A stretch of DNA of 64,000 nt from Candidatus Bathyarchaeota archaeon (lineage in GTDB: Archaea > Thermoproteota > Bathyarchaeia > 40CM-2-53-6), in assembly GCA_963835925.1 (NCBI GenBank), contig CAWIHH010000004.1:377289-441288 (forward strand), read 5' to 3'. Both the position numbers and the translations under genes were made by a program. The notes under the pieces were generated by a model, which saw nothing but the letters and a program-made list of their open reading frames with translations, was not told the DNA's origin and did not search any database. Shown here piece by piece: positions 16,825-35,176 of this stretch. Position 1 is the stretch's first letter; every line of letters begins with the position of its first letter.

Positions 16825-17658
16825 TTACTGCCAGATGCGAAATTCCGGTCTTACGAAAATTGAGGTTAGGCGCTTAGCATCGCAAAATGAGAGCTCGGAG
16901 TGTGTTGCGTCTGAGGATCCATCTTGTCTAGAATTGGCTTGGGAATTCGCCACGTGAATGCTATTCACGTAGGCACTGTGCAGCCCGATAGCGTACGCGC
17001 CGGCTTCGAATACTAGGCTGAAAGTGAGATGGTCTGGAGGAGCCCATTGCGCGAGTGCGTATTGCCTGGTCACGTTGAAGTGCTGATACGTCCACGCCCC
17101 TAATTGCGTCCTAAGGTACACGAACCGATGAGCTAGGAGCGTCCTAGCCTCGCTCGCCTCGTCCGAGAATATGAAAGTGATTGTGTGAATGCCGTCGTTT
17201 AACTCGACGCCGAAAATCAAAGACCGTGTTGTAGATGAGCCATTACACGAACATGGCTCCGCGAGAACCCAAATGCCGACGTCATCCTCAAGCAGTTCTG
17301 CCAATCGTGCACCGTCGATTGTTTGTTTCAAGTAGAGGTAAACAGGTGCATTATCAGTGCCGCTCTGCCCGATGAGCATCTGAGCTGCGCTCTTACCGTC
17401 CACTACGGTTTCGTGTATTGAAACGTTGTCCGCGGGCCCCTTCACGTACTCCATATCCCAGAGCATGAGCCTCCTCGCTCCCGGGTCCCCGACCCAAAGT
17501 TGAAAGTTCGGATCCAGAATTGGAGGTGGACCGACGAAGTTAGGCTGCAAATCGAGGAACGCTAGTCCAGCTATTATGAGTAATAGAGTCACAGATATTG
17601 GCGCAATGAGCTTCTTGTAGGATCTCACGTTACTATCGCACCACTCTTCCCACTTCAT
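16825..17658 (-). CDS. type-II anchored extracytoplasmic protein, unknown function
   Basis: 277 aa with one N-terminal helix (LIAPISVTLLLIIAGLAFL) and then a soluble domain. It overlaps the upstream GT-C-like gene by 26 nt, consistent with an operon. Confidence 0.45.
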   Translation of the reverse strand: MKWEEWCDSNVRSYKKLIAPISVTLLLIIAGLAFLDLQPNFVGPPPILDPNFQLWVGDPGARRLMLWDMEYVKGPADNVSIHETVVDGKSAAQMLIGQSGTDNAPVYLYLKQTIDGARLAELLEDDVGIWVLAEPCSCNGSSTTRSLIFGVELNDGIHTITFIFSDEASEARTLLAHRFVYLRTQLGAWTYQHFNVTRQYALAQWAPPDHLTFSLVFEAGAYAIGLHSAYVNSIHVANSQANSRQDGSSDATHSELSFCDAKRLTSIFVRPEFRIWQ

Positions 17659-18883
17659 CTTTGTACCAGAGCACTAAGCTAAGCAAGAGTAGAGGCATCC
17701 AGTAGATCACGTAGTTGGTTAGGGCGCGATAAGAGAACCACAGAATGATCCCCGGGAACACCCAGAAAACGTACTTCAACTTATCAAAATACGCACAGAA
17801 GTTGACCAGGAGCGTGACTAGAACTGCGATGGCGAGAATTGTGTAGAAAGTTCTCCCAACTTCAACCAAGCCAACCTGAGTCAGGACTGATGGCCCTTGA
17901 CTGAGAATAACCAGATCCGAAGCGATAGGCGTCAACACATCGCCAAACCAAGTTCCCGCAGCACCGATCATGAAAGGAACGTTCACGGCAAGGAAAACCG
18001 CAGCGGCCGCGCCGGCGAACTTCAGGGTTCGCCCAAGTCTGACCCGGTTTGAAGCTTTCCGATCAATTTGCAGCATGTAGATCAGCAGAAAAGGAGCGAG
18101 CAGCCATGGAATCTGTTTGAATGCGCACGATATACCGTAGAAGATTCCGGAAAGCATCGGTTTCTTCAGGCTGAAGGCGGCGAACATCAAAGGCAGTACC
18201 CATAACATGTCTGTCACGCTGGCAGCTGTGAAATTAATCATGAGATCAGAGCCGGCAAAGAGTGGCAGTAGGATCATGGGCCTGAGATTCTGCGGACACA
18301 AAAAGTATAGCGCAAACATAACGCCGATTTCAAATGCGACAAGAACCCAACGCATGTCTGAGAGCCCGAGCCAGACGAATGGGACAAAAATGAGGAAGTG
18401 TAACGCGGGGTATTGAAACGTCGTCAGATAATTTCCTGACGTCAAAGGAGTTAGGTCGCCTGGTTGAACGCGAAACATGTCCAGTGCCCTGGACATGTCC
18501 TGCAGGTATGGGTTCGCGCCGTGATTGACGAACATGATTGCCGCGTATTGACTATATGCCAGCACATCTGTCCGGTAGGAGCCCCTGTACGCTATCTCCG
18601 CCACAACATAGACCCCTCCTAGAGTGGCAATTACGAACGGGACCAAAGGTAGATGCCGAAACCTAAGGACAACTTTAGGGGGCATTAGTGCGAGTGCCAG
18701 TACCAGGATTGAAACGCCGTAGATTATCAACGTAAGAACTGCTACTTCCGGGTTCAAGTCCGCCCTTCCCCGATTCCAATCTTGAAATCCTTCGTAGATT
18801 GCGAATTGGGCGGAGAACAGAAAGGTTACTCTAAGGATGAATAGGTTGTCGATTGGACTGAGGTTGGGACTTGTGGATTTCAC
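17633..18883 (-). CDS. GT-C-like polytopic membrane protein (putative glycosyltransferase)
   Basis: The track ORF runs to 19015, but a GTG at 18883 forms a GTGA start/stop overlap with the upstream gene and precedes the first helix. The loop TDVLAYSQYAAIMFVNHGANPYLQ...FQYPALH resembles the other two GT-C-like genes. Confidence 0.5.
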   Translation of the reverse strand: MKSTSPNLSPIDNLFILRVTFLFSAQFAIYEGFQDWNRGRADLNPEVAVLTLIIYGVSILVLALALMPPKVVLRFRHLPLVPFVIATLGGVYVVAEIAYRGSYRTDVLAYSQYAAIMFVNHGANPYLQDMSRALDMFRVQPGDLTPLTSGNYLTTFQYPALHFLIFVPFVWLGLSDMRWVLVAFEIGVMFALYFLCPQNLRPMILLPLFAGSDLMINFTAASVTDMLWVLPLMFAAFSLKKPMLSGIFYGISCAFKQIPWLLAPFLLIYMLQIDRKASNRVRLGRTLKFAGAAAAVFLAVNVPFMIGAAGTWFGDVLTPIASDLVILSQGPSVLTQVGLVEVGRTFYTILAIAVLVTLLVNFCAYFDKLKYVFWVFPGIILWFSYRALTNYVIYWMPLLLLSLVLWYKDEVGRVVR

Positions 18884-19611
18884 TCCTTTTCGACCGCCCC
18901 TTTCTCGCGTCGACGTTGTGAATTGGCTCCACGCCTCTTGCGAACGTAGCGGGTTAGCAGTTCCACCAGCGGGAAGTTCAGAATGATTATTGCAACGATC
19001 CCAACCGAGAGCCAAGCGACTACCACTGCACTCTCAGCACGGCCGGCGTGCAAGAATGGTTGAGCAGTCATCACTCGCCTGAGCTGCTCAGTCTCACCTG
19101 TTCCAACTATCACGTCACGCCAAATAGTGCCTCCATTGGTCGTGCTCACGATGTCGAAGGTTGTGGTACCAATGCCTCCCGTCATTAGCCAGATGTAGAT
19201 TTGGGGAGCATCGATGTCAACCTCTAAGACCAATTCCGCGTAGGCTTCGGTGTAGTTAAAGTTACGAATTCCTTTGAAGAAGGCCACCATGTCACCATTT
19301 CGGGTCACGATATGCTCGTATTCTGTGTCCGGCCAAGGTATCTTTCGTCCCGCGTCGAGCACGTTGTTCTCACCGTTTCCCACCAGCCATCCACTATTTA
19401 GCACAGTTTTGATTCTGATTCCATTGGTGTTTGTGCCGTTGAGGTCGTCGAACATGATTCTCCCCCAATCGGCAGTTGAATCAATAAGCACCTTCACAGG
19501 GTCAACCTGACGCCACTGATCACCCTCGTTCTGGGCTGCTACGAAGGGCGAATAGAAAGTTGAAAGAATCACCAGGGCAATGATAAGGGATGTGACCACC
19601 CTATTGGACAA
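18880..19611 (-). CDS. secreted protein with C-terminal membrane anchor, unknown function
   Basis: 243 aa. Has a signal peptide (LIIALVILSTFYSPFVAAQ), a soluble domain, a C-terminal helix and a strongly basic tail (RKRRGANSQRRREK). Confidence 0.5.
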   Translation of the reverse strand: MSNRVVTSLIIALVILSTFYSPFVAAQNEGDQWRQVDPVKVLIDSTADWGRIMFDDLNGTNTNGIRIKTVLNSGWLVGNGENNVLDAGRKIPWPDTEYEHIVTRNGDMVAFFKGIRNFNYTEAYAELVLEVDIDAPQIYIWLMTGGIGTTTFDIVSTTNGGTIWRDVIVGTGETEQLRRVMTAQPFLHAGRAESAVVVAWLSVGIVAIIILNFPLVELLTRYVRKRRGANSQRRREKGAVEKE

Positions 19612-19617
19612 GCGTCA

Positions 19618-20718
19618 TCAGCTCCTTGCCTTTACCGGAGTGTTGCCCCTAGCTCGGGTTACTTTACCTCTGGGTTTCTGCCGCGCTATGGCTCTGCGAG
19701 GAGACGCACGGGTTTTTCGTGACTTCGTGGTCCGCCGCTCATTATTAGCTAGTCTTCCTTCAATATGAAGCACAAGAGCGAGGAAAGCAACTATCCAGAT
19801 TGGGAACAGGATCTCGCCTATCGAATTATGAAAGGCGTCCAGTTCCTGTCCGGTGTATGCGTAGGCGAAGCCATAGTATGCAATTGTGAAAATCCGGATA
19901 ACGTTTAGGAAAATCGTTCCGAGTACGCCAATTGTCGCATAGATAACTTTCCTCTTGAGCGGCGAGTCCAGCTTTGCAGCGAGCAGTATCATGACTAGCG
20001 AGTAAATGAGCATGCTCTGAACTCCCACGCTGGGCCAGTAGACTGCGAGTCTAAAGAAGCCGTGAACTCCGTTGATGGTGAGGAGATTGCTAAAACCGTA
20101 GATTGGGAGTCCGACAAGCCATGCGAGAAAGCCGACCGAGGCCACAATGGAATTAGCCCAGAACTGTAATGGCCCGATGCTTCCGTATGGGAAGAAGGCA
20201 TCGAGTAGGTAGAAGATGAGCATTCCGATCGACAGGATTATTGGAGTGATAACGCCGCGAACCGCTTTCACACCGAAGAGTACTATTGAGAGCACAAGTA
20301 GATACAACGCCATTACGAAGTAATCACTAGCCATTAGCCAACTGTTGCTAACCTGCCCTGACGCACCTAATGTCTTGCCGACCGAATAGATCATCGCCGT
20401 GAACACGGGCAATACGCCAAGCCCTCCAAAATAGACTAGACCCAGCCCCAGAACTATGATGGCCGCGATTAGGTAGGGTCGGTTGAGACGTGGCTTGTGG
20501 TCTTTTCGAAAGTCCCATAGTTCGAACGCCAAGAAAAACAGCACGAAAAAAAGCCCTCCCCGGCCGAGCTTGCCGAACCCTGCCCAGCTGAGTTCGAAAG
20601 TGTCCGGCGCTAGAGCGAATAACACTAGGACTGGAATTGCGGCCAAGATGAGCAGTAAGTCCGCGGATCTGAGGCGGCTAATCAGGGCTGCTTTGAACTG
20701 CTTCCTCGAGTACTGCAT
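19618..20718 (-). CDS. archaeosortase/exosortase-family homologue with Ser in place of the catalytic Cys; long basic C-terminal tail
   Basis: 366 aa, polytopic. It aligns by eye to the small archaeosortase at 33491-34027: VYWPS230VGVQS vs ERMC77TGVQV, LNVIR275I vs ANVAR119I, and AFH297NSIG vs LAH138YPTG, with similar spacings (37/34 and 20/17 residues). The codon at 20029-20031 is AGC. The last 45 aa are Arg/Lys-rich. Confidence 0.6.
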   Translation of the reverse strand: MQYSRKQFKAALISRLRSADLLLILAAIPVLVLFALAPDTFELSWAGFGKLGRGGLFFVLFFLAFELWDFRKDHKPRLNRPYLIAAIIVLGLGLVYFGGLGVLPVFTAMIYSVGKTLGASGQVSNSWLMASDYFVMALYLLVLSIVLFGVKAVRGVITPIILSIGMLIFYLLDAFFPYGSIGPLQFWANSIVASVGFLAWLVGLPIYGFSNLLTINGVHGFFRLAVYWPSVGVQSMLIYSLVMILLAAKLDSPLKRKVIYATIGVLGTIFLNVIRIFTIAYYGFAYAYTGQELDAFHNSIGEILFPIWIVAFLALVLHIEGRLANNERRTTKSRKTRASPRRAIARQKPRGKVTRARGNTPVKARS

Positions 20719-20742
20719 GTGCTGCCGCCAGAGATGAGCCTG

Positions 20743-21492
20743 TCAGAAGATTCTGTCTTTCGGGAACACTTCTACGCCAGATTCGGAGATTTGATAGGGC
20801 CGGAGCTGAGTATCATGCGCGACCCCTCTCATCTTCTCAATTTGTATTCCTCGAATCACGTTTCCGTCATGAACCATAGTATGCAAAAGCACAACACCTT
20901 CAGAGAGAAATTCCTCAAGCTGAAATCTACGCTCAAGGACTGATGTTCGAAGCTCACTTATCATCAGACACGAGCATCCTGTTGACTCAAGTGCATCAAA
21001 AAAGAGCAGCAGCGCCTTTCTCCGCTTAACTTCCTCCGGGTATCGAAGCATGAGCGAAGTTATGGGGTCAACAATAATCCTCTGCGTTCCCTCCTCCGCG
21101 GCGATGCGCCTAATCGTTCTCAACAATGAGCCTAACGTCACTTCCGGTAGTGTCAAGGTGATTCGATCTTCTGGGCTAACCATACCCTGACCAATTCTGT
21201 TCGACGGCTTCCGCAGCTCGGTCGCGTCTATGAACGTAATCTTGCCATCATGCTCCAAAGCATCCAAATTCCAGCCAAACGAGGACAGGTTTGCTTTCAT
21301 TCGTTCCGGCTTTTCTTCCAGCGATATATACAGCCCAGGTTCACCCAAGTTTCCCCCGCCGACCAGGAACTGCATACCAAACGTAGTTTTTCCGGATCCT
21401 GGGCTCCCAACAACCAGAATCGTCCGCCCCTTCAGAAGACCACCGTGGAGCATCTCGTCGAGCCCTTTGATTCCTGTAGTGACACGGTCCAA
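20743..21492 (-). CDS. KaiC/RecA-superfamily ATPase (single-domain, archaeal KaiC-like)
   Basis: 249 aa. Has TGIKGLDEMLHGGLLKGRTILVVGSPGSGKTTFGMQF (Walker A), a Walker B region (RIIVDPITSL) and the IQIEKMRG..H tail typical of PF06745-type ATPases. Confidence 0.8.
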   Translation of the reverse strand: MDRVTTGIKGLDEMLHGGLLKGRTILVVGSPGSGKTTFGMQFLVGGGNLGEPGLYISLEEKPERMKANLSSFGWNLDALEHDGKITFIDATELRKPSNRIGQGMVSPEDRITLTLPEVTLGSLLRTIRRIAAEEGTQRIIVDPITSLMLRYPEEVKRRKALLLFFDALESTGCSCLMISELRTSVLERRFQLEEFLSEGVVLLHTMVHDGNVIRGIQIEKMRGVAHDTQLRPYQISESGVEVFPKDRIF

Positions 21493-21680: not shown

Positions 21681-24600
21681 CTATTGGCGTCTGCGGCGTA
21701 GTAGGTATAGTGATGCTGCAAGCGCTGATAGTGCTACGACTGCTATTCCGCTGAACTCTGGGACTGGAATGTTGCTTTGCGGCAATCCAACGTTATTACC
21801 AGAGCCTGGAACGGACGACTGCCCGCTCGTGACACTGATAGTGCCCATTGGTGTTGATCTGTATCCTGGACCTGACATGCTCATACTGTACGTGCCTGGA
21901 ACCAAGTAGAATTCGTAGATGCCATCCTCCGTGTACGATGCGAACGAGGGACCTGTTGCGTTCCCTACCGCCGCGCCTTGCACGGTTACTGTGTACCAGC
22001 TGATGGATCTGAACTCATTGCTCCAGGTGAACGCTAGCGCTGTTCCTGAAATGTATCCGTTCAGGTCGACTTCCCAGATTGCACTGCTCTCTCCGCTCAG
22101 TGGTGCGTTGGTGAAAGTCCACACGCCCTGCTGGCTGTATGGGCCTAGATGGTTGGCGACCATTGAGTGGCCGAGGAAGTACTTGTCCAGTGCCCCGTCT
22201 TCAGTTAAGCTGATGTGGCTTGTTGCTGCTGTGCCTGGAATGATGTGGAACGATTCTCCCATTAGGAGACCTGGAACCACTGGATAGAAGTTGTTGAAGT
22301 AGCTATTGGCTTTGATTAGCTCGTGCTGGCTTATTGGACTGACTGCGGATGGGTCTTGTGGGACCATTGAGTCGTTGAGGTACCAGTTGACGAAGTCTGA
22401 CTCGGCAGTCCAACCCGTACCAGTATAGTCGGGTTGTCCGAGTATGCCTTGGTTGGCGAAGTGTGCTTTGGCAACGGACCAGTAATCGGCTGGCCAATTG
22501 TCAATTTCGAAGTCGCTGCCTGTGCCTGGTGTGAAGACTGGGTCGCCGTACGAAGCGTAAGGAGGAAGACCTGCTGTCTGGATGTGAAGCTGAGTCACTC
22601 CGCCTGGCACGTAGTTCAAGCCACCACCGATTGGGTAGCTAGCGGCCGTCAGTTGAGTGTTGTCCGCTGCTCTAGCTCTACCGTTGCTTGATCCTGGACT
22701 GCCAGTGATGACTGCATTACCGTTGATGTATGTAGTACCGTAGGTGTAGACGCCTTCGCTTGACATCCATTCTGCGACTAGTCTGCCTGAGTCGTCGAAG
22801 AAGCGTACTCTCGCTGACATGTTGTAAGGTGTTCCAGTGACCAAATGCTCCTTCTTGAAGATTATGTCCAATGTCAGGTTTACGCCGATTAGAAGGTTAA
22901 TTTTCATGTCGGCGATTTGGCCCTTGTTAACGTAGATCGCGTAATCTTTGTCTTGTATGTAGCCGTAGGTTTGGCCTTGGAAGAAGTATTGACCGGAATC
23001 GAGTGCTCCTGGGTATAGGTGGCTATCGGTGAACAGGCCCCAAGCGTTCTTGGCGCTGCCGACGGTGAACACGTCATAACTCCACATGTATCCACCAACG
23101 TCACTACCTGTACCTGCAGGACAGCTTAGGCTGGTGCAGGCATTACCTGTCTTCGTTACGGGTATAGCCTCATCGTTGTCTCCAGCGAAGTAGGCGACTT
23201 CTTTTCCGAACCAGACATATTTCGCGTTGCCTGTTCCTCTGCCTTCTATCTCGCTAAAGTATGTTGAGCGGTTCTGGAAGTAACCTATAGTCCCGAAAGC
23301 GTTGCCCGCTTTGTTTAGCCCTGCTTCATCTCCTGTACAAACGTAACATGCGGCTGCGACGAAGCTGTATTTGCTGTCGTAGACTCCGATGCTGATGTCC
23401 TTGCCGTTCCAGACCCAGTTACGATTAACTCTAGGTCTTTCCCAGTCAATGCTGTACACGGTGAAGTTGAAACCAACACCACGATACAAATGATTACTGA
23501 CTAGAATTGGAGTTCCACTGAGTGTGACTGAGACTAGGTCCTGGGTTTGTTGTAGGTAACCTAACGCTTGCACCTTCGGTCTATAGGTGCCAGCTGGGAT
23601 ACCGTAATTTTGTCCAAGCCAAGTGCTGTTGAACCCGTAGAAGGTAACATACGAGTTACCGTACTGGTTCATGTAATTGATATTCGCTTGCTGCTGCGCT
23701 AATAGATTGTTCGTGTACGTCGTGCCGTACGCTAGACCGGTGAAATCCGTGAATACAGGTTGAGCAGTTGCGCATGGGTATTGAGTGGTACCGCAGAGCA
23801 ATGTTTGGTTGTAAGAGTACAATACGCCTGATCGGGAATCCAGTAGACTACCAACCAGAACATTTGCGCCCGTATCGATTGGACTTGTAACTAATGTTCC
23901 TGCGTTGTCGTGGAAGTGAACTGTCTTGTTAACCCAACTGCTAATCCTGAGGTCGAGTGGAATCGAAATGTCACCAGCCCACTCGTTCGGAGTGACCTGG
24001 AACGAATATTCTTGGAATGTTGCGCCGTCAATGGCGGTTTGAACGTATCGGAAGACCCACGCGCGAACGTAGTATCTTCCAGCCGTCAACCCGTTAACCC
24101 ATGTGGCGTAGCGTTGTGGAACGTGTCCATCAAGGTCTCTGGGAGCACCGAACATGCCTTTCTCTCCGAACTCATAATGGAACTTGTCGTTAACACCGTC
24201 AGCGACAACATACCAATTCTGAGCCGGACCAACACCCTCTGGATCAGTGGATGGCGTTGCTCCGGTGAACACTCCACCAGGGCCGCCAAGAACTTGGTTC
24301 CAGTAGGTATCGGGGGCGCCGATGCCGCTAATAGGGGCACCTCCCCATGGGAAGGCGATTTTCTGAGCTGTTCGTGGATCTCCACAAGCATTTGCGTCAT
24401 CTCCTGGGTAGTAGTTTGTTTGACCGCCCGCGACGCATGGTAGCGGGGACCAGGAGACTAGGCTAGCGTTTGAGCTGGGTACGTTGTTGACTGTGGGTTT
24501 ATCGTAAAGTTCAATCTTAATGTACTCTCTTCCCGGACCGTTGGTACCAGTGAACTGTCCTATTCCATTAAAGCAGGCGCTAACACTAGCACAGTATCCG

Positions 24601-25193
24601 TCAGCAGTGTAGGGTCCTGTATCACCGTAGAAAGGCCATGGTTCTGATCCGAAAGCGTGTTTACTGAACACGTCTCCGTGAATTACTGGACCAGGGTTCA
24701 AGTATCCATCAAAGTGCAACGATTGCCCCTTGAGAACCTGAACGTTAGTGGCGATTGGTGTAAGCGGATATCCAGCAGCCTCAGCGTAGAGGGTGTAAAC
24801 GCCTGGCGCAACACCTTCCACCTCATAATGGCCGTCAGATGTTTCGTTGAAGTAGCCGACTGCATCAGCACAACCAACCGCAGAAGGATTGCTCGCCTTA
24901 GTGCAGTCAACCACACTCTTGCCAGTGTACGGATCAAACTTGGTCTGCATTTGAGCCCAAACTTTACCCGCCAATTCAACTGGTTGACCGTAGAGTGTTG
25001 AGTTGTAACCACCGTACTTGATTGTTCCAGTAATGATGGATGGATCAAGCTCACCCTTCACAAGCAGCACAGGCCAGTTAGGAGTAGGAACCCAACCTGA
25101 TGGGTCAGCTGTGCCTGTCTGGGCATTTAGTGGACCGGTAAGGGTACTGGGTATAATTCCAGCGCCGTTCGGTCCAACGCTTTGGGACGTCAC
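21681..25193 (-). CDS. giant PEF-CTERM surface (S-layer-like) glycoprotein candidate
   Basis: 1170 aa, rich in Tyr/Gly/Thr/Asn with many N-x-S/T sequons. It has repeated G.Y..... motifs (GVAPGVYTLYAEAAGY, IPAGTYRPKVQALGY, LVPGTYSMSMSGPGY) like carboxypeptidase-regulatory/Ig-like modules. The C-terminus is NIPVPEF-SGIAVVALSALAASLYLL-RRRRQ. There is no N-terminal signal peptide in this ORF (see finding). Confidence 0.75.
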   Translation of the reverse strand: MTSQSVGPNGAGIIPSTLTGPLNAQTGTADPSGWVPTPNWPVLLVKGELDPSIITGTIKYGGYNSTLYGQPVELAGKVWAQMQTKFDPYTGKSVVDCTKASNPSAVGCADAVGYFNETSDGHYEVEGVAPGVYTLYAEAAGYPLTPIATNVQVLKGQSLHFDGYLNPGPVIHGDVFSKHAFGSEPWPFYGDTGPYTADGYCASVSACFNGIGQFTGTNGPGREYIKIELYDKPTVNNVPSSNASLVSWSPLPCVAGGQTNYYPGDDANACGDPRTAQKIAFPWGGAPISGIGAPDTYWNQVLGGPGGVFTGATPSTDPEGVGPAQNWYVVADGVNDKFHYEFGEKGMFGAPRDLDGHVPQRYATWVNGLTAGRYYVRAWVFRYVQTAIDGATFQEYSFQVTPNEWAGDISIPLDLRISSWVNKTVHFHDNAGTLVTSPIDTGANVLVGSLLDSRSGVLYSYNQTLLCGTTQYPCATAQPVFTDFTGLAYGTTYTNNLLAQQQANINYMNQYGNSYVTFYGFNSTWLGQNYGIPAGTYRPKVQALGYLQQTQDLVSVTLSGTPILVSNHLYRGVGFNFTVYSIDWERPRVNRNWVWNGKDISIGVYDSKYSFVAAACYVCTGDEAGLNKAGNAFGTIGYFQNRSTYFSEIEGRGTGNAKYVWFGKEVAYFAGDNDEAIPVTKTGNACTSLSCPAGTGSDVGGYMWSYDVFTVGSAKNAWGLFTDSHLYPGALDSGQYFFQGQTYGYIQDKDYAIYVNKGQIADMKINLLIGVNLTLDIIFKKEHLVTGTPYNMSARVRFFDDSGRLVAEWMSSEGVYTYGTTYINGNAVITGSPGSSNGRARAADNTQLTAASYPIGGGLNYVPGGVTQLHIQTAGLPPYASYGDPVFTPGTGSDFEIDNWPADYWSVAKAHFANQGILGQPDYTGTGWTAESDFVNWYLNDSMVPQDPSAVSPISQHELIKANSYFNNFYPVVPGLLMGESFHIIPGTAATSHISLTEDGALDKYFLGHSMVANHLGPYSQQGVWTFTNAPLSGESSAIWEVDLNGYISGTALAFTWSNEFRSISWYTVTVQGAAVGNATGPSFASYTEDGIYEFYLVPGTYSMSMSGPGYRSTPMGTISVTSGQSSVPGSGNNVGLPQSNIPVPEFSGIAVVALSALAASLYLLRRRRQ
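21684..21761 (-). other. PEF-CTERM tripartite sorting signal
   Basis: A PEF motif, a 17-18 residue hydrophobic helix and an RRRRQ cluster at the extreme C-terminus. Confidence 0.8.
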
Positions 25194-25963
25194 TGGTTAG
25201 CGTCTTCCAGGAACATTTTGAAGAAGTATCTGCCAGCGATCGTTGGTGCAGTTACACCGTTGACTCTAACATAATACCATTCATCTTGTCCCGTGTAGAA
25301 GTGAATTGGGTTATTCCCGCCGTTGCATGCCCCGTCCGCACACGTTCCTGTATCAGCGAGGATTCTGATTAGAGTCCAGCCTGGAACGTATCGGTCGTAT
25401 GCATTAGCAGTGAAAGTCCAAATGTTCGCGTAATTGTTTGTGATGGTTGTAACGACTTGTTCAGGTGTGTTTGGAACTTTGAACTCAGGAGGGATAGCGA
25501 TCCAGAGTGCGCTGTACTGGCACGTAGGTCCCGGGCAACTGGCCCATGTTCCGGTGCGGTTGATTGCGAAGATCAAGTCACCCGTCGAACCGACCACAAT
25601 AGCGCCGAAAGGCGCGTACTCATCACCGTCAGATTGGGCATAGTTCTGAGACCAAATGGTTGGGTAGAGACCTGCTTTCGTTAAGGCGTTGACTGGATAT
25701 GGTGCGACATATCCGGGTCCTACAATCTTCAAAGTGTTAGGTACACTTCCAGTTGGAGAACCGTCGTATGTGTCTTCACCACCACCAGGCCAAACATACC
25801 CAATTACGCCTGGGATGTGCGGATCAAAGTTCGTCACTGTGTATGGGTAAGCGCCTTCGTTGTTCAACCCAAGCGTAAAGTGCGCTTGGACTGGAGCGAG
25901 GATTGCGATTGTACTTAGTAGGAATATTGCTATAGTTAGACTTGCAGCTAATTTCTTATTCAA
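25190..25963 (-). CDS. secreted protein (signal peptide), possibly the N-terminal part of the PEF-CTERM giant protein
   Basis: 257 aa, TTG start, with signal peptide LTIAIFLLSTIAILAPVQA-H and no anchor. It ends AGRYFFKMFLEDANQ* and overlaps the GTG of the next ORF by GTGA. Its composition is similar to the 1170-aa ORF, and it has a related motif (AGRYFFKMF vs AGRYYVRAWVF). Confidence 0.55.
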   Translation of the reverse strand: MNKKLAASLTIAIFLLSTIAILAPVQAHFTLGLNNEGAYPYTVTNFDPHIPGVIGYVWPGGGEDTYDGSPTGSVPNTLKIVGPGYVAPYPVNALTKAGLYPTIWSQNYAQSDGDEYAPFGAIVVGSTGDLIFAINRTGTWASCPGPTCQYSALWIAIPPEFKVPNTPEQVVTTITNNYANIWTFTANAYDRYVPGWTLIRILADTGTCADGACNGGNNPIHFYTGQDEWYYVRVNGVTAPTIAGRYFFKMFLEDANQ

Positions 25964-27877: not shown

Positions 27878-30034
27878 ATGTCGTTGACGCGGCCACGCTT
27901 CTTGTTCATGGTCCTCGCGCTTCTAATCATTATAACGCCGAGCGCGAGCGTTTGGCCCCAAGCGTCACCCATCAATTACATCGTACTCTATGCGCACACT
28001 TCCAACAATTCTCGCATCCTAAACGCAGTCCCAAACTGGGGCGGCATCAGAATCGAGAACGTGAACGGGACACTGAGTTTCAAACTGACCCCCACACTTG
28101 GAGAGAATTTGCGAATCACCGGTGCAATAGCTGTAACGCTCTACATGCGAGCTACTTCTGGAGTTCTGAGCAATTTGAATTTCAGCTTGACTGAGCTCAA
28201 AAGCACCGGAGTGCAGGTGCCCGTTCCCGGAGCGAAAATTCAATCACTCACAGTATTAGACACGCGATTTCTCCCATTCACGGTGGGCGTTGGCGTAATT
28301 GACTATGAATTTCAAAAGGGTTCTGCGATCGTGCTCTCGGTCCGAGTAGACGCCAACAGCGCCACGCCTTATCTCGCATGGGATGACCCCTCGGCGCCCA
28401 CTAGCATCACACTTCCAGCCGTGAGCCCACTGCATGTTGCAATCACATTTCTAGATTATCAATCCCATCGAGCAAATCTGATTCAAACCGAGAATCAGAC
28501 CAGTTTAGTTCAAGTGCACTTCAGAGCAAACGTGACGGATCCAATAGGAATCTACCGATTGAACAACGCCATAGCAATTATCAATGCACCAAACGGAACT
28601 TCTTCAAGAATTCAACCAGCACAGCAATTCATCTCGCAATATGCCAACGATTACTCTTTTGATCTTGCGCTGGGTGCGGGATCATGGCACGTGACTCTTG
28701 AAGTCAATGACAAGTCGGGTGGCGTTTACGATTTCTTAGGCGAAATCTTAGTGACTCCATTCTATCACGTCGAAGTAAACGTCGTCGATTCGTCAGGAAG
28801 AGGTCTGGCGAATGCCTCGGTAAGCGTCTTCTACCAACAGCTTCAGGCTTGGAGTGGTGTTACAAATTCCACTGGGTGGGTACCGCTCGAATTGCCCGAC
28901 ACGGGAATAGTTGGCCCATTGAATCTAACGGTGAGTTGGTCGGGGGTGCAATCGTTTTCAGAGCTGAAGGTGGTGGGGAGAACCATGAGCGTTGTGAGGG
29001 TTCCTGTGTTTGATAAGACTGTGCGCCTGACTGTGGGCGGAATCCCCCTGCCGGGGGCAACAGTTCGGTTGCTCAAGAACAGCAGGACGCTGACCCAAAC
29101 CTTCAGTGGGTACGATGGCACGGTAACCTTCCACGGTCTGCCGATGAACAATTACACTCTGAGTGCCCAGTATCTATTCAGTCAATTCAATATGACTTTG
29201 AATGTGAACTCGAGCGAAATTTCAACCATCAATCTCCCCGTCCCGCATCAACCTGAACTGGTAACCTTAGTGCTGGTAGCTGGAGTTGTAGCGGTGACAG
29301 CGCTCGAAAGGAGAAGAAGAAAATCATACCCGCAGAGTTTCGGTTACTTTAATCAGCTAACTTCTGGCGGGCTACCTCAAACCTGTTTCGCGTTAGTGAC
29401 CGGTAACTCTGGAGCGGGCAAGAGCGTTCTCTTGGAAACTCTTGCGATCGAACACTCGACCATAGGGCAGAGCGTATTCATCACTAACACCGAGTCCCCT
29501 CGGAAGATCCGCGAAAGCATGAGAAGTATCGGAATGAAGGGGGAATTTGAAAATGCGCGAATTGTCTTCGTGGATGCCTATTCGGCGATTGGCGGTGCGA
29601 ACTCTGAAGAGAAATTTGCAGTGTCCTCGCACACTGACCTCACGGGTCTGGGATTGGTGATCTCGAAATGTCTTTCTGAAACAGGTCCTGGAACGGACGT
29701 GTACATAGATTCCATCAGTCCACTATTAGCTGATCTTCGAGTCAACTTCGTAATCAATTTCCTGAACTCCGTCGCGGTCAAGGTAAAATCCAACAATGGC
29801 AAACTCTGCGTTACGACAGGCACGGGCATAGAGAAATCTGACCTTAGCAAAATAGAGGAGGTAGCGGACTGCGTAATTGAAACGCAACTCCAAGAATCTC
29901 GGCGCGGCCAAACAAGAAGACTGCGAATAAAGAAGCTGCGCGGCAAAGCCTACGTCGACAAGTGGGTTAGCTTCCACATAGAAGCAGACAAGGGCATAGT
30001 TTTCTTTTCGAGGACCAAGCCGATCAAAGACTAA
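27878..30034 (+). CDS. membrane-tethered KaiC-like ATPase with large N-terminal extracellular beta-rich domain
   Basis: 718 aa. A signal peptide (FLFMVLALLIIITPSASV) is followed by about 440 aa with sequons and carboxypeptidase-regulatory-like modules (VEVNVVDSSGRGLANASVSV..., GATVRLLKNSRTLTQTFSGYDGTVTF). Then come a TM helix plus ERRRRK, and a C-terminal ATPase (LTSGGLPQTCFALVTGNSGAGKSVL..., DVYIDSISPL, RLRIKKLRG). Confidence 0.7.
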   Translation: MSLTRPRFLFMVLALLIIITPSASVWPQASPINYIVLYAHTSNNSRILNAVPNWGGIRIENVNGTLSFKLTPTLGENLRITGAIAVTLYMRATSGVLSNLNFSLTELKSTGVQVPVPGAKIQSLTVLDTRFLPFTVGVGVIDYEFQKGSAIVLSVRVDANSATPYLAWDDPSAPTSITLPAVSPLHVAITFLDYQSHRANLIQTENQTSLVQVHFRANVTDPIGIYRLNNAIAIINAPNGTSSRIQPAQQFISQYANDYSFDLALGAGSWHVTLEVNDKSGGVYDFLGEILVTPFYHVEVNVVDSSGRGLANASVSVFYQQLQAWSGVTNSTGWVPLELPDTGIVGPLNLTVSWSGVQSFSELKVVGRTMSVVRVPVFDKTVRLTVGGIPLPGATVRLLKNSRTLTQTFSGYDGTVTFHGLPMNNYTLSAQYLFSQFNMTLNVNSSEISTINLPVPHQPELVTLVLVAGVVAVTALERRRRKSYPQSFGYFNQLTSGGLPQTCFALVTGNSGAGKSVLLETLAIEHSTIGQSVFITNTESPRKIRESMRSIGMKGEFENARIVFVDAYSAIGGANSEEKFAVSSHTDLTGLGLVISKCLSETGPGTDVYIDSISPLLADLRVNFVINFLNSVAVKVKSNNGKLCVTTGTGIEKSDLSKIEEVADCVIETQLQESRRGQTRRLRIKKLRGKAYVDKWVSFHIEADKGIVFFSRTKPIKD

Positions 30035-32848: not shown

Positions 32849-33323
32849 ATGAGGCTAGCCCCTTACGCGGTTGGCATTGGGAATGTTACTAGCGTCTTTG
32901 TCCTCACGGCGCCCGCCATTTCAGCGCTATCCCCGCAGGGCGGCGGCCTAATTTTCGGCTGGGTTTACGGGTTCACTTGGGATAATCAGCTTGTTCCGCT
33001 TGCGTGGGTCCAAGTGACCGCATCAAATCCTAATGCCCTATCCAAATGCGCTATTCACTATCTCGACTGGGGGAAATGGAGTATTTGAAATGAACGTGCC
33101 CGCGGGAACTTACAATCTGACAGTTTCACCGCCCGGATTCCAAGCGCATAGCTCAATGGTGTCGGTGTCTGACGGCTCCTCATCATCAACCGCTTTCTAC
33201 TTGGAACAGTCCCACGTCCCAATTCCCGAATTCCCCACCCAGTGGGTCGCCTTGATACTCACCATTGCCCTAGCAACGACACTGCTCACTAGGAAGAACA
33301 CAAGACGCAAGCGCCAGCCGTGA
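32849..33323 (+). CDS. small PEF-CTERM protein with one carboxypeptidase-regulatory-like domain; frame broken once (fragments 32849-33088 and 33033-33323)
   Basis: Frame A reads ..GWVYGFTWDNQLVPLAWVQVTASNPNA and frame B reads YPNALFTISTGGNGVFEMNVPAGTYNLTVSPPGFQAHSSMVSVSDG. Together they make one beta-sandwich module. The C-terminus is HVPIPEF-PTQWVALILTIALATTLL-TRKNTRRKRQP. Confidence 0.6.
33225..33320 (+). other. PEF-CTERM tripartite sorting signal
   Basis: A PEF motif, a hydrophobic helix and a basic cluster at the C-terminus. It shares the context (I/V)P(V/I)PEF with the giant protein. Confidence 0.75.
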
Positions 33324-33490: not shown

Positions 33491-34027
33491 ATGGACGATC
33501 AACGCAGCGAACGCCGGCACCAAGTCTACCTGCTCATGCGTTTTGCTGGAATTGCCTCAATTATCGCCATCGTTCTGTATTACGTGCCTAATTATTTCTT
33601 TCTTGAAAAGATCACAGCTGAGCACTCCGCCACGTTAATGGAGCTTATGGGAATCAAAGCTACCGTATGGACTCAGGGGAACTCGGTATTCCTGAACCAG
33701 TTCGAAGTTGAGCGAATGTGCACCGGCGTCCAGGTGGTTACAATATTCCTCGGGATTCTCGTAGCCCTCCCTAAGGCTGATGTCAAGCGAAGGATTCTGG
33801 CCTTTGGCGTCATCGCCATAAGCGTCTACTTCGCTAACGTTGCTCGCATAGCGTTTGAGATTTGGCTACTCTACACCGGGACCCTACCTTGGTCTCTCGC
33901 ACACTATCCCACGGGACTAATACTTGGGGTCTTTTCCGTAGCCTTCCTCGTGGTGGTTGCCGACCACTTCCTACCCGAAGTGGGAGACTTGGCATTCTCA
34001 GCCCTGGACGGTTTCCGAAGGGCGTAA
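33491..34027 (+). CDS. small archaeosortase/exosortase-family protein (canonical Cys/Arg/His)
   Basis: 178 aa with 4-5 helices. Has ERMC77TGVQ (the CxG nucleophile motif), ANVAR119I and LAH138YPTG. It lies directly downstream of the small PEF-CTERM gene. Confidence 0.7.
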   Translation: MDDQRSERRHQVYLLMRFAGIASIIAIVLYYVPNYFFLEKITAEHSATLMELMGIKATVWTQGNSVFLNQFEVERMCTGVQVVTIFLGILVALPKADVKRRILAFGVIAISVYFANVARIAFEIWLLYTGTLPWSLAHYPTGLILGVFSVAFLVVVADHFLPEVGDLAFSALDGFRRA

Positions 34028-35176
34028 TGTCTTTCCGCAGTGAACACAGTGTGTCCAGTCCTCCTCGACTGGTTCACCGCAACTCTCACAGAACTTTGGC
34101 GGGGCTACCTGAACAGTTTCCTGGTCTTCCGTTGGAGTCGACTTGGCTCTTTTTCTCCTAAGAAGGGCTAAGGCGACGCCTCCAAGTATTCCAATGGCAA
34201 GAACTGAAGGTAAGACCAAGGGGGTGTAATTCACCGCAAAATTCGCGTTCAGCACCTTGGGGCGGTCCATAGTGAAATTAATCGAGGGTGACCCTGAGTC
34301 TAAATCTCCAGACCAATCCTTGAATTCGTATTTAAGCCCAAGAAATTCGAGAGGCCCTCCCAGTGGGAGCGAACTCGCAACACGCAGGCTGACATTTGCA
34401 CCAATATTGTACCAGGCTGTTTGCGAATAAGTTGGAACAATGGAATCCACGTGTAGCAAGTATTGCGTCACGTAAAAGCCGACAAGTTTCGAGTTCCCGT
34501 TCAGCATCAGGATTCTATCTGTGCTGTTCATTCTGTCTTTCCAGCCCGCGAAGACCAATCTCGTTGAGTTTTCGAAAGTCAACAAACTGGGCACGCTGAT
34601 CTCATGAGCGATTCCGACGGGGAGCTGAAGAGCAACGGTTCCTGCGTTTGACGTTTTTCCTGTAGAATTATCAACTTTCACTGTGACATTGGGAATTCCC
34701 AGGTCCACCTCAAGGCTCGCAAGCTTAGCGACTTTGATCGTCAGCTCAGCAAAGCCCGGGCCTTGATAGTTGTCAGCATAGTACTGCCAGGTGCCGTTCT
34801 TGAAATAGTACGCGATAGCGGTTAGCACTAGATCTTGTTCGGTGTTGGGCGCTGTGAGGTTTACCGTCCAGAATTTGTCGCCACCTCTGCTCACATCGAT
34901 CTGGTCGCTGTGCCACAGCTCTGAGCCAAGATTCTTTAACGAACCTTGAAACAAGGTTGATTTGATTGTAGCGTTCGTATGTATTGCGTATTCGACATCG
35001 ACCACTAATGAGTATTGGCTCGAAGGGGCAACCTGTCGCGGGTATTGCGTCACAGCGACTCTCAGTAGGCCAACATTGGGTTCGTCGGCGGTGGCGAGTG
35101 ACACGCCGAAGATAGATAGGGCGACCAGCAACACTAGGAGCGACCCGATGAGTCTCCAGTATCTGATGCATTTCAC
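33998..35176 (-). CDS. surface protein with InlB-B-repeat-like modules, TM helix and cytoplasmic C-terminal zinc ribbon
   Basis: 392 aa. Has a signal peptide (LLVLLVALSIFGVSLATA), the module LKYEFKDWSGDLDSGSPSINFTMDRPKVLNANF, a TM (LPSVLAIGILGGVALALL-RRKRAK) and a tail FCESCGEPVEEDWTHCVHCGK. Confidence 0.55.
   Translation of the reverse strand: MKCIRYWRLIGSLLVLLVALSIFGVSLATADEPNVGLLRVAVTQYPRQVAPSSQYSLVVDVEYAIHTNATIKSTLFQGSLKNLGSELWHSDQIDVSRGGDKFWTVNLTAPNTEQDLVLTAIAYYFKNGTWQYYADNYQGPGFAELTIKVAKLASLEVDLGIPNVTVKVDNSTGKTSNAGTVALQLPVGIAHEISVPSLLTFENSTRLVFAGWKDRMNSTDRILMLNGNSKLVGFYVTQYLLHVDSIVPTYSQTAWYNIGANVSLRVASSLPLGGPLEFLGLKYEFKDWSGDLDSGSPSINFTMDRPKVLNANFAVNYTPLVLPSVLAIGILGGVALALLRRKRAKSTPTEDQETVQVAPPKFCESCGEPVEEDWTHCVHCGKTLRPSETVQG

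Follow-up and report, generated by a model that had tools for sequence, protein, structure and literature searches.

A large archaeosortase with serine in place of the family's nucleophile cysteine was identified on the minus strand (19618..20718) of the window, by which we mean the whole 64,000-nucleotide stretch of Bathyarchaeial DNA that was analyzed. The 366-aa protein adds one more, divergent member to a kind already known and is neither an error nor a one-off, and its homologues place it in the Bathyarchaeial branch of a clade that contains the curated thaumarchaeosortases. We put at roughly 65% the probability that the gene is a genuine, selectively maintained Ser-type exosortase/archaeosortase whose product is an active Ser-nucleophile sortase processing PEF-CTERM surface proteins; among the three options offered by the initial annotation of this DNA, a Ser-nucleophile variant was the best supported, the evidence for it being comparative throughout. 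That Ser230 is catalytically competent, and what serves as substrate and as acceptor, we infer from such comparisons.

The protein belongs to the exosortase/archaeosortase superfamily, with PF09721 (33 bits, cutoff 25.7) and the exosortase/archaeosortase signature TIGR04178 (49.5 bits, E 3.9e-13, cutoff 23) both above cutoff, the latter with residues 226-319 on profile positions 3-94. The thaumarchaeosortase model TIGR04297 missed its cutoff of 250 bits (142.7 bits) and was still the best-scoring specific model, matching end to end with residues 26-330 on profile positions 7-301 of 307. The ArtA model gave no match to the large protein, and the ArtC model (TIGR03762, cutoff 100 bits) gave none at E ≤0.1. 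We collected 120 homologues with an identity of at least 56%. The AF2 model (pLDDT 82.4, pTM 0.73) is polytopic, with nine long helices and a small beta element; a Foldseek comparison of this model with the PDB returned no match at E ≤0.001, PDB sequences searched with a profile yielded nothing beyond a chance match to myosin, and we know of no solved structure for the exosortase family.

Ser230 is encoded by AGC at 20029..20031 on the minus strand (gct on the plus strand), within the motif WPSVGVQS, and occupies the place of the nucleophile Cys of the family. The initial annotation had reported Ser at this codon with Arg and His retained, and this was borne out, with SVGVQ starting at residue 230, NVIR at 272-275 (R275), and FH at 296-297 (H297). 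The codons of Arg275 (19894..19896, motif LNVIR) and His297 (19828..19830, motif AFHN) lie on the same strand. It had proposed an alignment of orthologues; the homologues collected here carried Ser at this column in 120/120 cases; Arg275 and His297 were likewise invariant in the 120 close homologues, and among cluster representatives of the wider clade Arg was conserved in 133/133 and His in 128/130. The Ser codon could be read in 15 independent MAG and metagenome contigs (14 labeled Bathyarchaeia or Bathyarchaeota and 1, L008, labeled Methylomirabilota) and was AGC in 12 and AGT in 3, a synonymous variation that indicates selection on the Ser residue. The conserved signature Cys is absent from the large protein, which has zero Cys residues, as do 93 of the 120 homologues, and Ser230 stands in the Cys column.

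A second, small Cys-type archaeosortase of 178 aa (C77/R119/H138) is encoded at 33491..34027 on the plus strand, with 44.3 bits on TIGR04178 (cutoff 23) and residues 71-160 on profile positions 1-94, and all specific models scored below cutoff on it (e.g., heimdallarchaeosortase, 52 bits vs 130). Some 400 homologues of it were found; a sample of 28 was aligned, and all of these keep C77, R119, and H138. Its synteny is the same in L097. The motif-by-motif correspondence drawn earlier between the two window sortases held for the small protein as well (CTGVQ at 77, NVAR at 116-119, AH at 137-138), with comparable spacing (large protein, 45/22 residues; small protein, 42/19). Direct comparison was weak: BLASTP gave E 0.13, yet paired S230 with C77 and R275 with R119, and hhalign of the two family alignments, both shallow (Neff about 2), gave a probability of 0.3 in the wrong region. 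Column equivalence therefore rests on the shared TIGR04178 profile, whose coverage of both motifs gives S230 and C77 one common profile position, and, more firmly, on 71 Cys-bearing relatives, whose WPC[AS]G shares a profile column with WPS[VA]G. These alignments show Ser230 to be column-equivalent to the family's Cys, the Cys of the 71 relatives falling on S230 and not, as the initial annotation had allowed for, elsewhere in the profile.

Beyond the close homologues, we profile-aligned a wider-clade sample of 150 cluster representatives and found 56 with Ser and 71 with Cys in the nucleophile column. On NJ trees, Fitch parsimony required 9 Cys/Ser switches (range 7-13 over 100 bootstraps), the trees being crude with long branches and the exact number uncertain. 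The nearest neighbor of some Ser proteins is a Cys protein, as in the pairs P0161/P0147 (47%) and P0197/P0249 (49%), the Ser protein being named first. Two Ser codon families were found, AGY in the Bathyarchaeial clade and TCA, TCC, and TCT in Nitrosopumilaceae; AGY and TCN are each one substitution from TGY and two substitutions from each other. Across the sampled sequences, these data show repeated interchange of Cys and Ser within the clade. To the fuller statement, that the nucleophile changed from Cys to Ser or back on many occasions (7-13 events, with the two Ser codon families) while Arg, His, the PEF-type signal, and the accessory genes stayed constant, we would give even odds, and a literature search did not find serial Cys/Ser nucleophile switching described in one archaeal sortase clade.

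The window gene belongs, as a normal member, to a conserved cassette for cell-surface biogenesis. Immediately upstream of it lies a KaiC/RecA-type ATPase of 249 aa (KaiC249; 20743..21492, minus strand; PF06745, 201.9 bits), which also adjoins the sortase in L007-L009, L011, L012, L015, and L096 and occurs near Cys-type relatives in 38 loci. Directly downstream is p243 (18880..19611, minus strand), a secreted or membrane-anchored protein of 243 aa that was assigned to the cassette by synteny; in L001-L014, 14 of the 15 related loci, it lies next to the sortase with 50-60% identity, and family-model searches with p243 gave no match, its family being unassigned. A polytopic membrane protein resembling GT-C glycosyltransferases (ALG6/ALG8-like; 17633..19015, minus strand), for which PF03155 narrowly missed its cutoff (24.6 bits, cutoff 25), is kept in the cassette with 61-69% identity; its true start probably lies downstream of the listed TTG, and the homologue in L096 is called at 417 aa. 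The last gene of the conserved cassette encodes p277 (277 aa, family unassigned; 16825..17658, minus strand), with 38-46% identity in 11 loci. On the plus strand at 27878..30034, domain models identified KaiC718, a 718-aa protein that combines extracellular CarboxypepD_reg domains with a TM segment and a KaiC-like ATPase (DUF7504), which is a recurrent neighbor of Cys-type relatives (39/80 loci).

Two PEF-type tripartite C-terminal signals, reading PEFS and PEFP, were identified within the window. A candidate substrate is a giant surface protein, whose C-terminal 1170-aa part (21681..25193, minus strand; TIGR03024, CarboxypepD_reg at 44 bits) ends in the PEF-CTERM-like signal PVPEFSGIAVVALSALAASLYLLRRRRQ; this tail matched the PEF-CTERM model TIGR03024 over 25/25 positions with 17.8 bits, below the cutoff of 23. 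The N-terminal 257-aa part with the signal peptide (25190..25963, minus strand) is divided from it by a frameshift at 25190-25198; one inserted base restores a giant ORF of 1427 aa, and in L011 a single 1474-aa ORF spans both parts. The same giant gene, tail included, is found upstream of the sortase in L011 and L012. The other signal, HVPIPEFPTQWVALILTIALATTLLTRKNTRRKRQP, ends a small PEF-CTERM protein with a CarboxypepD_reg domain (32849..33323, plus strand), whose gene has lost its frame through an imperfect 13-nt tandem duplication (33029-33054) and has an intact 150-aa orthologue in L097. Scores on the PEFS and PEFP tails were 11.6 bits with TIGR04296 (cutoff 25) on one and the above value with TIGR03024 on the other. 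Both candidate substrate genes of the window are frameshifted, an observation that counts against the reading of an active sortase with PEF-CTERM substrates.

In the mechanism that we propose, this polytopic membrane enzyme would use Ser230 in the role of the usual Cys nucleophile. Its substrates would be secreted surface proteins, among them the giant protein whose gene lies about 1 kb upstream of the sortase, and it would recognize on them the signal QSN-x-P-x-PEF followed by a hydrophobic helix and then an Arg cluster. Cleavage at or near PEF would proceed via an acyl-enzyme that is an oxy-ester, not a thio-ester, and either an acceptor (following the ArtA proposal, a lipid amine) or water would then resolve this intermediate, so that the surface protein ends up anchored or released. 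Ser230, Arg275, and His297 probably lie close to where the last three TM helices end on the outer side, a placement that was obtained by positive-inside reasoning from the C-terminus, using the AF2 model and the basic tail. This Lys/Arg-rich tail of 45 aa (residues 322-366; 19621..19755, minus strand) contains 17 K/R and 1 D/E, has a pLDDT of 51-62, and is predicted to be disordered and is probably cytoplasmic. The initial annotation was right about its presence and composition and wrong to call it unusual, as all close homologues have such a tail (15-49 aa, 27% K/R, sequence not conserved). An origin of the tail as a frameshift artefact was considered and rejected, since P0002 (84% identical) has the same ...KARS end.

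Several other explanations of the Ser residue were weighed. The large protein could be a non-catalytic pseudo-enzyme or scaffold, a substrate-binding or assembly partner of the small Cys archaeosortase, which would do the cleaving; this we regard as unlikely. Such a division of labor fits the position of the small sortase within about 13 kb of the large one in conserved synteny (the window and L097), from where it could in principle supply catalysis; for the pairs P0004/P0331 and P0121/P0324, contigs of matching length suggest that the two types may occur together elsewhere, and the signals of the two PEF-type proteins are so similar that one enzyme could serve both. By analogy, the critical role of Cys173 in ArtA (PMC9263693) also speaks for a scaffold and against an active Ser form. 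Against a dead site, however, stand Ser, Arg, and His at 120/120 under synonymous codon turnover, which would not be expected there, the repeated replacement of Cys and Ser forms by each other in the same gene neighborhood, and canonical thaumarchaeosortase loci (L098-L100) in which, within the loci themselves, no second sortase lies nearby.

Rather less probable again is a change of chemistry, in which the Ser form would be a hydrolase that releases or trims the protein and not a transpeptidase that attaches it to a lipid or glycan. Oxy-ester intermediates are less reactive than thio-esters toward aminolysis, a matter of general enzymology that would agree with this, as would the finding that lipid-synthesis genes such as pssA and pssD were not seen beside the cassette. 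The data, however, do not separate hydrolysis from transfer; Cys and Ser forms are accompanied by the same neighbor genes, and rhombosortase, itself a Ser intramembrane protease, has been discussed as a possible transpeptidase (Haft preprint). Two further explanations are scarcely credible. A base-call or assembly error from TGC to AGC in this genome, one of the options of the initial annotation, could draw on the two frameshifted genes, which point to flaws in the assembly or the genome, but it is dismissed by Ser in 120/120 homologues from independent projects, by AGC or AGT in 15 independent contigs, and by the lack of any Cys in the protein. Misalignment, with the true nucleophile Cys elsewhere in the large protein, would fit the non-significant direct pairwise and profile-profile alignments of the two window sortases; it is contradicted by the same lack of Cys, by the invariant WPC of the 71 relatives, which falls on WPS in the profile alignment, and by both motifs lying at the same TIGR04178 profile positions. 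An active Ser-nucleophile sortase remains the reading that we prefer.

The description of exosortases and archaeosortases as cysteine (trans)peptidases (MEROPS C106) draws on conservation and one mutagenesis study. Ser at this position occurs in two abundant archaeal lineages, the ammonia-oxidizing Nitrososphaeria and the soil and sediment Bathyarchaeia. If the Ser form is active, the mechanism of the family would be more flexible than described, serine-hydrolase probes and not thiol reagents would be the choice for inhibitors and probes, and annotation rules that demand Cys would throw out real enzymes. If serial switching is true, the clade would be a natural series of thiol/hydroxyl isozymes, and the chemistry of the exosortase family would not need a thio-ester. 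For the window itself the message is smaller: the AGC codon is correct, and the gene is an ordinary member of its cassette. The Cys/Arg/His triad, which the initial annotation took as established, derives from conservation; in the mutagenesis cited for ArtA of Haloferax, the critical residues are Cys173, Arg214, and Arg253 (PMC9263693).

Among known systems, the closest is thaumarchaeosortase (TIGR04297), which its curators paired with PEFG-CTERM (TIGR04296). Canonical members scored 526.8 (P0156), 270 (P0160), and 258 bits (P0152) on this model, carry the NCBI name thaumarchaeosortase in Nitrosarchaeum and Nitrosopumilaceae, and have Ser in WPSAGVHS in 119/120 cases. The presence of Ser in canonical Nitrosopumilaceae members makes the Ser-for-Cys replacement a trait of a known curated family, and since this subfamily also lacks the signature Cys, that Cys is not universal in the superfamily. 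The initial annotation had missed that Ser is common to the TIGR04297 family and not peculiar to the window gene, and also the recurrent alternation of Cys and Ser in the wider clade. The curator text of TIGR04297 may refer to the replacement. A literature search found no description of a Ser variant for archaeosortases, Thaumarchaeota, or Bathyarchaeota, and no paper on thaumarchaeosortase. The large window protein shares with thaumarchaeosortase the Ser in WPS[AV]GV[HQ]S as well as the Arg and His, and many of its close homologues are already labeled thaumarchaeosortase by JGI. The two differ in score (142.7 bits vs 258-527 for canonical members), host (Bathyarchaeia, in agreement with the NCBI names of close relatives, vs Nitrososphaeria), Ser codon (AGY vs TCN), length (366 aa with an extended basic tail vs about 314 aa), neighbors (KaiC/GT-C-like cassette vs Nre/DinB), and signals (PEFS or PEFP vs PEFG).

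The Cys-type relatives (e.g., P0142, P0147, P0148, and P0150; loci L016-L095) share 29-48% identity with the window protein, carry WPCAG[IV]HS in the same column, and have no specific curated model above cutoff. As in the Ser clade, homologues of KaiC249, KaiC718, the GT-C-like protein, p243, and p277 lie nearby, and the relatives adjoin small proteins ending in ...EQSN-x-PIPEF-TM-RRRKR, with the QSN-x-P-x-PEF signal as in the window. These common neighbors and sorting signals place the Ser and Cys forms in the same system. The order of the cassette differs, with p243, GT-C, and p277 upstream of the sortase in Cys-type L065-L089 and downstream in the Ser clade.

ArtC (TIGR03762) is the counterpart of PEF-CTERM (TIGR03024), to which the tail of the window's candidate substrate is closest. 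Relatives in the clade score weakly on the ArtC model (26-42 bits, far under the cutoff of 100). To our knowledge, ArtA of Haloferax volcanii is the only archaeosortase studied experimentally. A member of the same superfamily, it acts on a tripartite C-terminal signal of a surface glycoprotein; it differs in its Cys173 nucleophile and PGF-CTERM signal, and no specific similarity to the window protein was detected. Its active site has been described as extracellular (PMC9263693), and a thio-ester acyl-enzyme resolved by archaetidylethanolamine has been proposed (PMC7157517). Rhombosortase, of the unrelated rhomboid fold and family and with no sequence similarity to the window protein, is an intramembrane protease that uses a Ser nucleophile to process the GlyGly-CTERM sorting signal (PMC3237569; Haft preprint), and as an analogy it shows that Ser chemistry is compatible with sorting-signal processing.

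The large sortase gene (19618-20718, minus strand; 366 residues) has AGC (Ser) as codon 230, gct on the plus strand at 20029-20031. The motif positions of the initial annotation proved exact for this protein (S230 in SVGVQ, R275 in NVIR, H297 in FH) and for the small Cys-type archaeosortase (33491-34027, plus strand; 178 aa; C77 in CTGVQ, R119 in NVAR, H138 in AH), and the replacement of Cys by Ser, with Arg and His kept, is read from the window sequence itself. Both proteins exceed the 23-bit cutoff of the exosortase/archaeosortase signature TIGR04178, the large one at 49.5 bits (residues 226-319 on profile positions 3-94) and the small one at 44.3 bits (residues 71-160 on positions 1-94), and these alignment ranges bring S230 and C77 to a single profile position. 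BLASTP between the two gave a nonsignificant match (E 0.13) pairing S230 with C77 and R275 with R119, and hhalign between their two family alignments recovered no meaningful match.

From a search of 5.8 billion proteins, 120 homologues of the large sortase were listed at 56% identity or above, and S230, R275, and H297 were invariant in all of them, together with the surrounding W-P-S-V-G-V block. The Ser codon was AGC in 12 and AGT in 3 of 15 independent MAG/metagenome contigs, 14 labeled Bathyarchaeia or Bathyarchaeota and 1 (L008) Methylomirabilota. Synonymous turnover around a constant Ser indicates purifying selection and not sequencing error, and the base-call error proposed among the initial annotation's options is refuted. 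The large sortase contains no Cys, as do 93 of the 120 listed homologues, whose alignment has no Cys-rich column; the nucleophile has not simply relocated. Nor does profile alignment place the catalytic Cys column elsewhere, as the initial annotation had allowed for, the WPCAG[IV]HS motif of Cys-type relatives aligning on the S230 column. A misalignment hiding a true Cys elsewhere in the protein is excluded on the same 2 grounds. Contig L008 (DATKOK010000106.1) has the label Candidatus Methylomirabilota bacterium, yet its KaiC, Ser-sortase, p243, and GT-C genes form the archaeal cassette (59-70% identity); an archaeal contig binned wrongly is the probable explanation.

A profile of 44 homologues retrieved 286 relatives from 1.84 billion cluster representatives. 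Among the best 150 of these, aligned to the profile, the S230 column held 56 Ser, 71 Cys, 1 Asn, and 1 Gly, with Arg in 133/133 at the R275 column and His in 128/130 at the H297 column. With the S/C column masked, a neighbor-joining tree of 91 full-length representatives interleaved Ser and Cys forms, and Fitch parsimony required 9 Cys/Ser changes (range 7-13 over 100 bootstrap trees). Several nearest neighbors had opposite states, including P0161 (Ser) and P0147 (Cys) at 47% identity and P0197 (Ser) and P0249 (Cys) at 49%. Codon usage agrees independently with this repeated exchange: Ser is AGY in the Bathyarchaeial clade and TCA, TCC, and TCT in 3 canonical Nitrosopumilaceae genes, and as AGY and TCN are each 1 substitution from TGY (Cys) and 2 from each other, the split is expected if 2 Ser lineages arose separately from Cys.

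In 15/15 related genome loci the Ser-type gene stands first in a conserved cassette, followed by a 243-aa secreted/anchored protein (p243), a GT-C-like polytopic protein (ALG6/ALG8-like match of 24.6 bits, cutoff 25), and a 277-aa protein (p277); neither p243 nor p277 had a match to known families. A KaiC-type ATPase (KaiC249) lies directly upstream of the sortase in 7 loci. In the window, the cassette including this ATPase spans 16825-21492 (minus strand), and it is conserved in the related Ser-type loci L001-L015 and L096. For the GT-C-like ORF (17633-19015, minus strand), the TTG listed as its start gives an overlap of ~135 nt with the preceding gene; since homologues are 417-450 aa, translation probably begins at a later codon.

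Homologues of the window's neighbor proteins were also counted around 80 metagenomic Cys-type loci, where we found KaiC718 in 39, KaiC249 in 38, the GT-C-like protein in 20, p277 in 17, and p243 in 16; small proteins with a C-terminal ...EQSN-x-PIPEF-helix-RRRKR were present in 10. Common neighbors and like signals point to Ser and Cys enzymes working in the same system on the same signal type. KaiC718, the 718-aa protein of the window (27878-30034, plus strand), joins extracellular CarboxypepD_reg domains through 1 TM segment to a KaiC-like ATPase (DUF7504) on the cytoplasmic side, and may be a transmembrane signaling or assembly ATPase of the surface-protein system.

A giant secreted protein is encoded upstream of the Ser-sortase in the window and in 2 related loci (L011 and L012); its tail, ...QSNIPVPEFS-hydrophobic helix-RRRR, aligns with the whole PEF-CTERM model TIGR03024, scoring 17.8 bits where the cutoff is 23. 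Both candidate substrate genes are broken in the window sequence, whether by genuine mutation or by an error of assembly. At 25190-25198 a frameshift divides the giant gene into a 257-aa signal-peptide ORF (25190-25963, minus strand) and a 1170-aa PEF-CTERM ORF (21681-25193, minus strand); inserting a single base there restores a 1427-aa ORF, and the homologues in L011 (1474 aa) and L097, a second locus with the small archaeosortase, are single ORFs. The small CarboxypepD_reg/PEF-CTERM gene (32849-33323, plus strand), which lies beside the small archaeosortase, has lost its reading frame through a 13-nt imperfect tandem duplication at 33029-33054 (CCTAATGCCCTAT / CCAAATGCGCTAT); with either copy deleted it becomes a 153-aa ORF that corresponds to the 150-aa gene found intact in L097. 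Convergent with the small archaeosortase gene and overlapping its 3' end, as in L097, is the gene of a 392-aa protein (33998-35176, minus strand) with a signal peptide, InlB-B-repeat-like extracellular region, 1 TM segment, RRKR cluster, and cytoplasmic zinc ribbon.

AlphaFold2 modeled the large sortase (44-sequence alignment; pLDDT 82.4, pTM 0.73) as helical and polytopic, with residues 206-225 forming a small beta element. S230 immediately precedes helix 233-249, R275 falls within helix 254-285, and H297 falls within helix 290-337. Lys/Arg residues number 17 in the tail and 4 in loop 249-257, and the positive-inside rule, read back from the C-terminus, would place all 3 residues near the outer ends of the last 3 helices, in agreement with the active site of ArtA, described as extracellular (PMC9263693). 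Structure and sequence-profile searches of the PDB found no solved structure of the family. The Arg/Lys-rich tail that the initial annotation called unusual does have 45 residues, but it is a feature of the clade and no peculiarity of this gene: every close homologue carries one of variable sequence (15-49 residues, 27% K/R, 6% D/E), the window's being at the long end and sharing its ...KARS ending with the 84%-identical P0002. The tail, modeled at low confidence (pLDDT 51-62), is probably a disordered cytoplasmic extension.

Among the initial annotation's options, the comparative evidence (conservation, Cys/Ser exchange, and shared context) favors a serine-nucleophile sortase, to which we give a probability of roughly 0.65: Ser230 would attack PEF-type signals and cleave them via an oxy-ester acyl-enzyme. 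That the Ser form does the same job is argued most strongly by the system it shares with Cys enzymes. The main rival, a pseudo-enzyme or scaffold working with the small archaeosortase, draws on that protein's proximity (13 kb) in a synteny that L097 conserves, its wide distribution in Bathyarchaeia, and its own adjoining PEF-CTERM gene; we consider it unlikely, because a scaffold sits poorly with invariant Ser, Arg, and His and with repeated Cys/Ser replacement within 1 gene context. An active enzyme that hydrolyzes instead of transferring fits the data just as well as transfer does, and seems to us quite improbable. The oxy-ester route of a serine-nucleophile enzyme would be analogous to the mechanism proposed for ArtA, a thio-ester acyl-enzyme with archaetidylethanolamine as acceptor (PMC7157517).

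Our literature search found no paper discussing Ser at the nucleophile column, and Haft's preprint describes "nearly perfect conservation" of the triad. The best specific model for the large sortase is thaumarchaeosortase TIGR04297, whose end-to-end alignment scores 142.7 bits, far short of the curated cutoff of 250; many close homologues are labeled "thaumarchaeosortase" by JGI and "exosortase/archaeosortase family protein" of Candidatus Bathyarchaeia at NCBI. Canonical members score higher (P0156 526.8, P0160 270, and P0152 258 bits), and relatives of P0156 bear the NCBI name "thaumarchaeosortase" in Nitrosarchaeum and Nitrosopumilaceae. Their loci (L098-L100) differ from the window, with an Nre_N/Nre_C protein upstream of the sortase and, downstream of it, an overlapping 159-162-aa ORF and then DinB. 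Although scores differ, Ser is common to both, with WPSAGVHS in 119/120 canonical sequences, so Ser-for-Cys is inherent to a family that curators had defined before. The replacement is not new in kind; what is modestly novel is the evidence for repeated Cys/Ser exchange inside 1 conserved system. The large sortase belongs to a clade that has thaumarchaeosortase, itself a Ser-bearing family, as its curated core, and is a divergent Bathyarchaeial member there.
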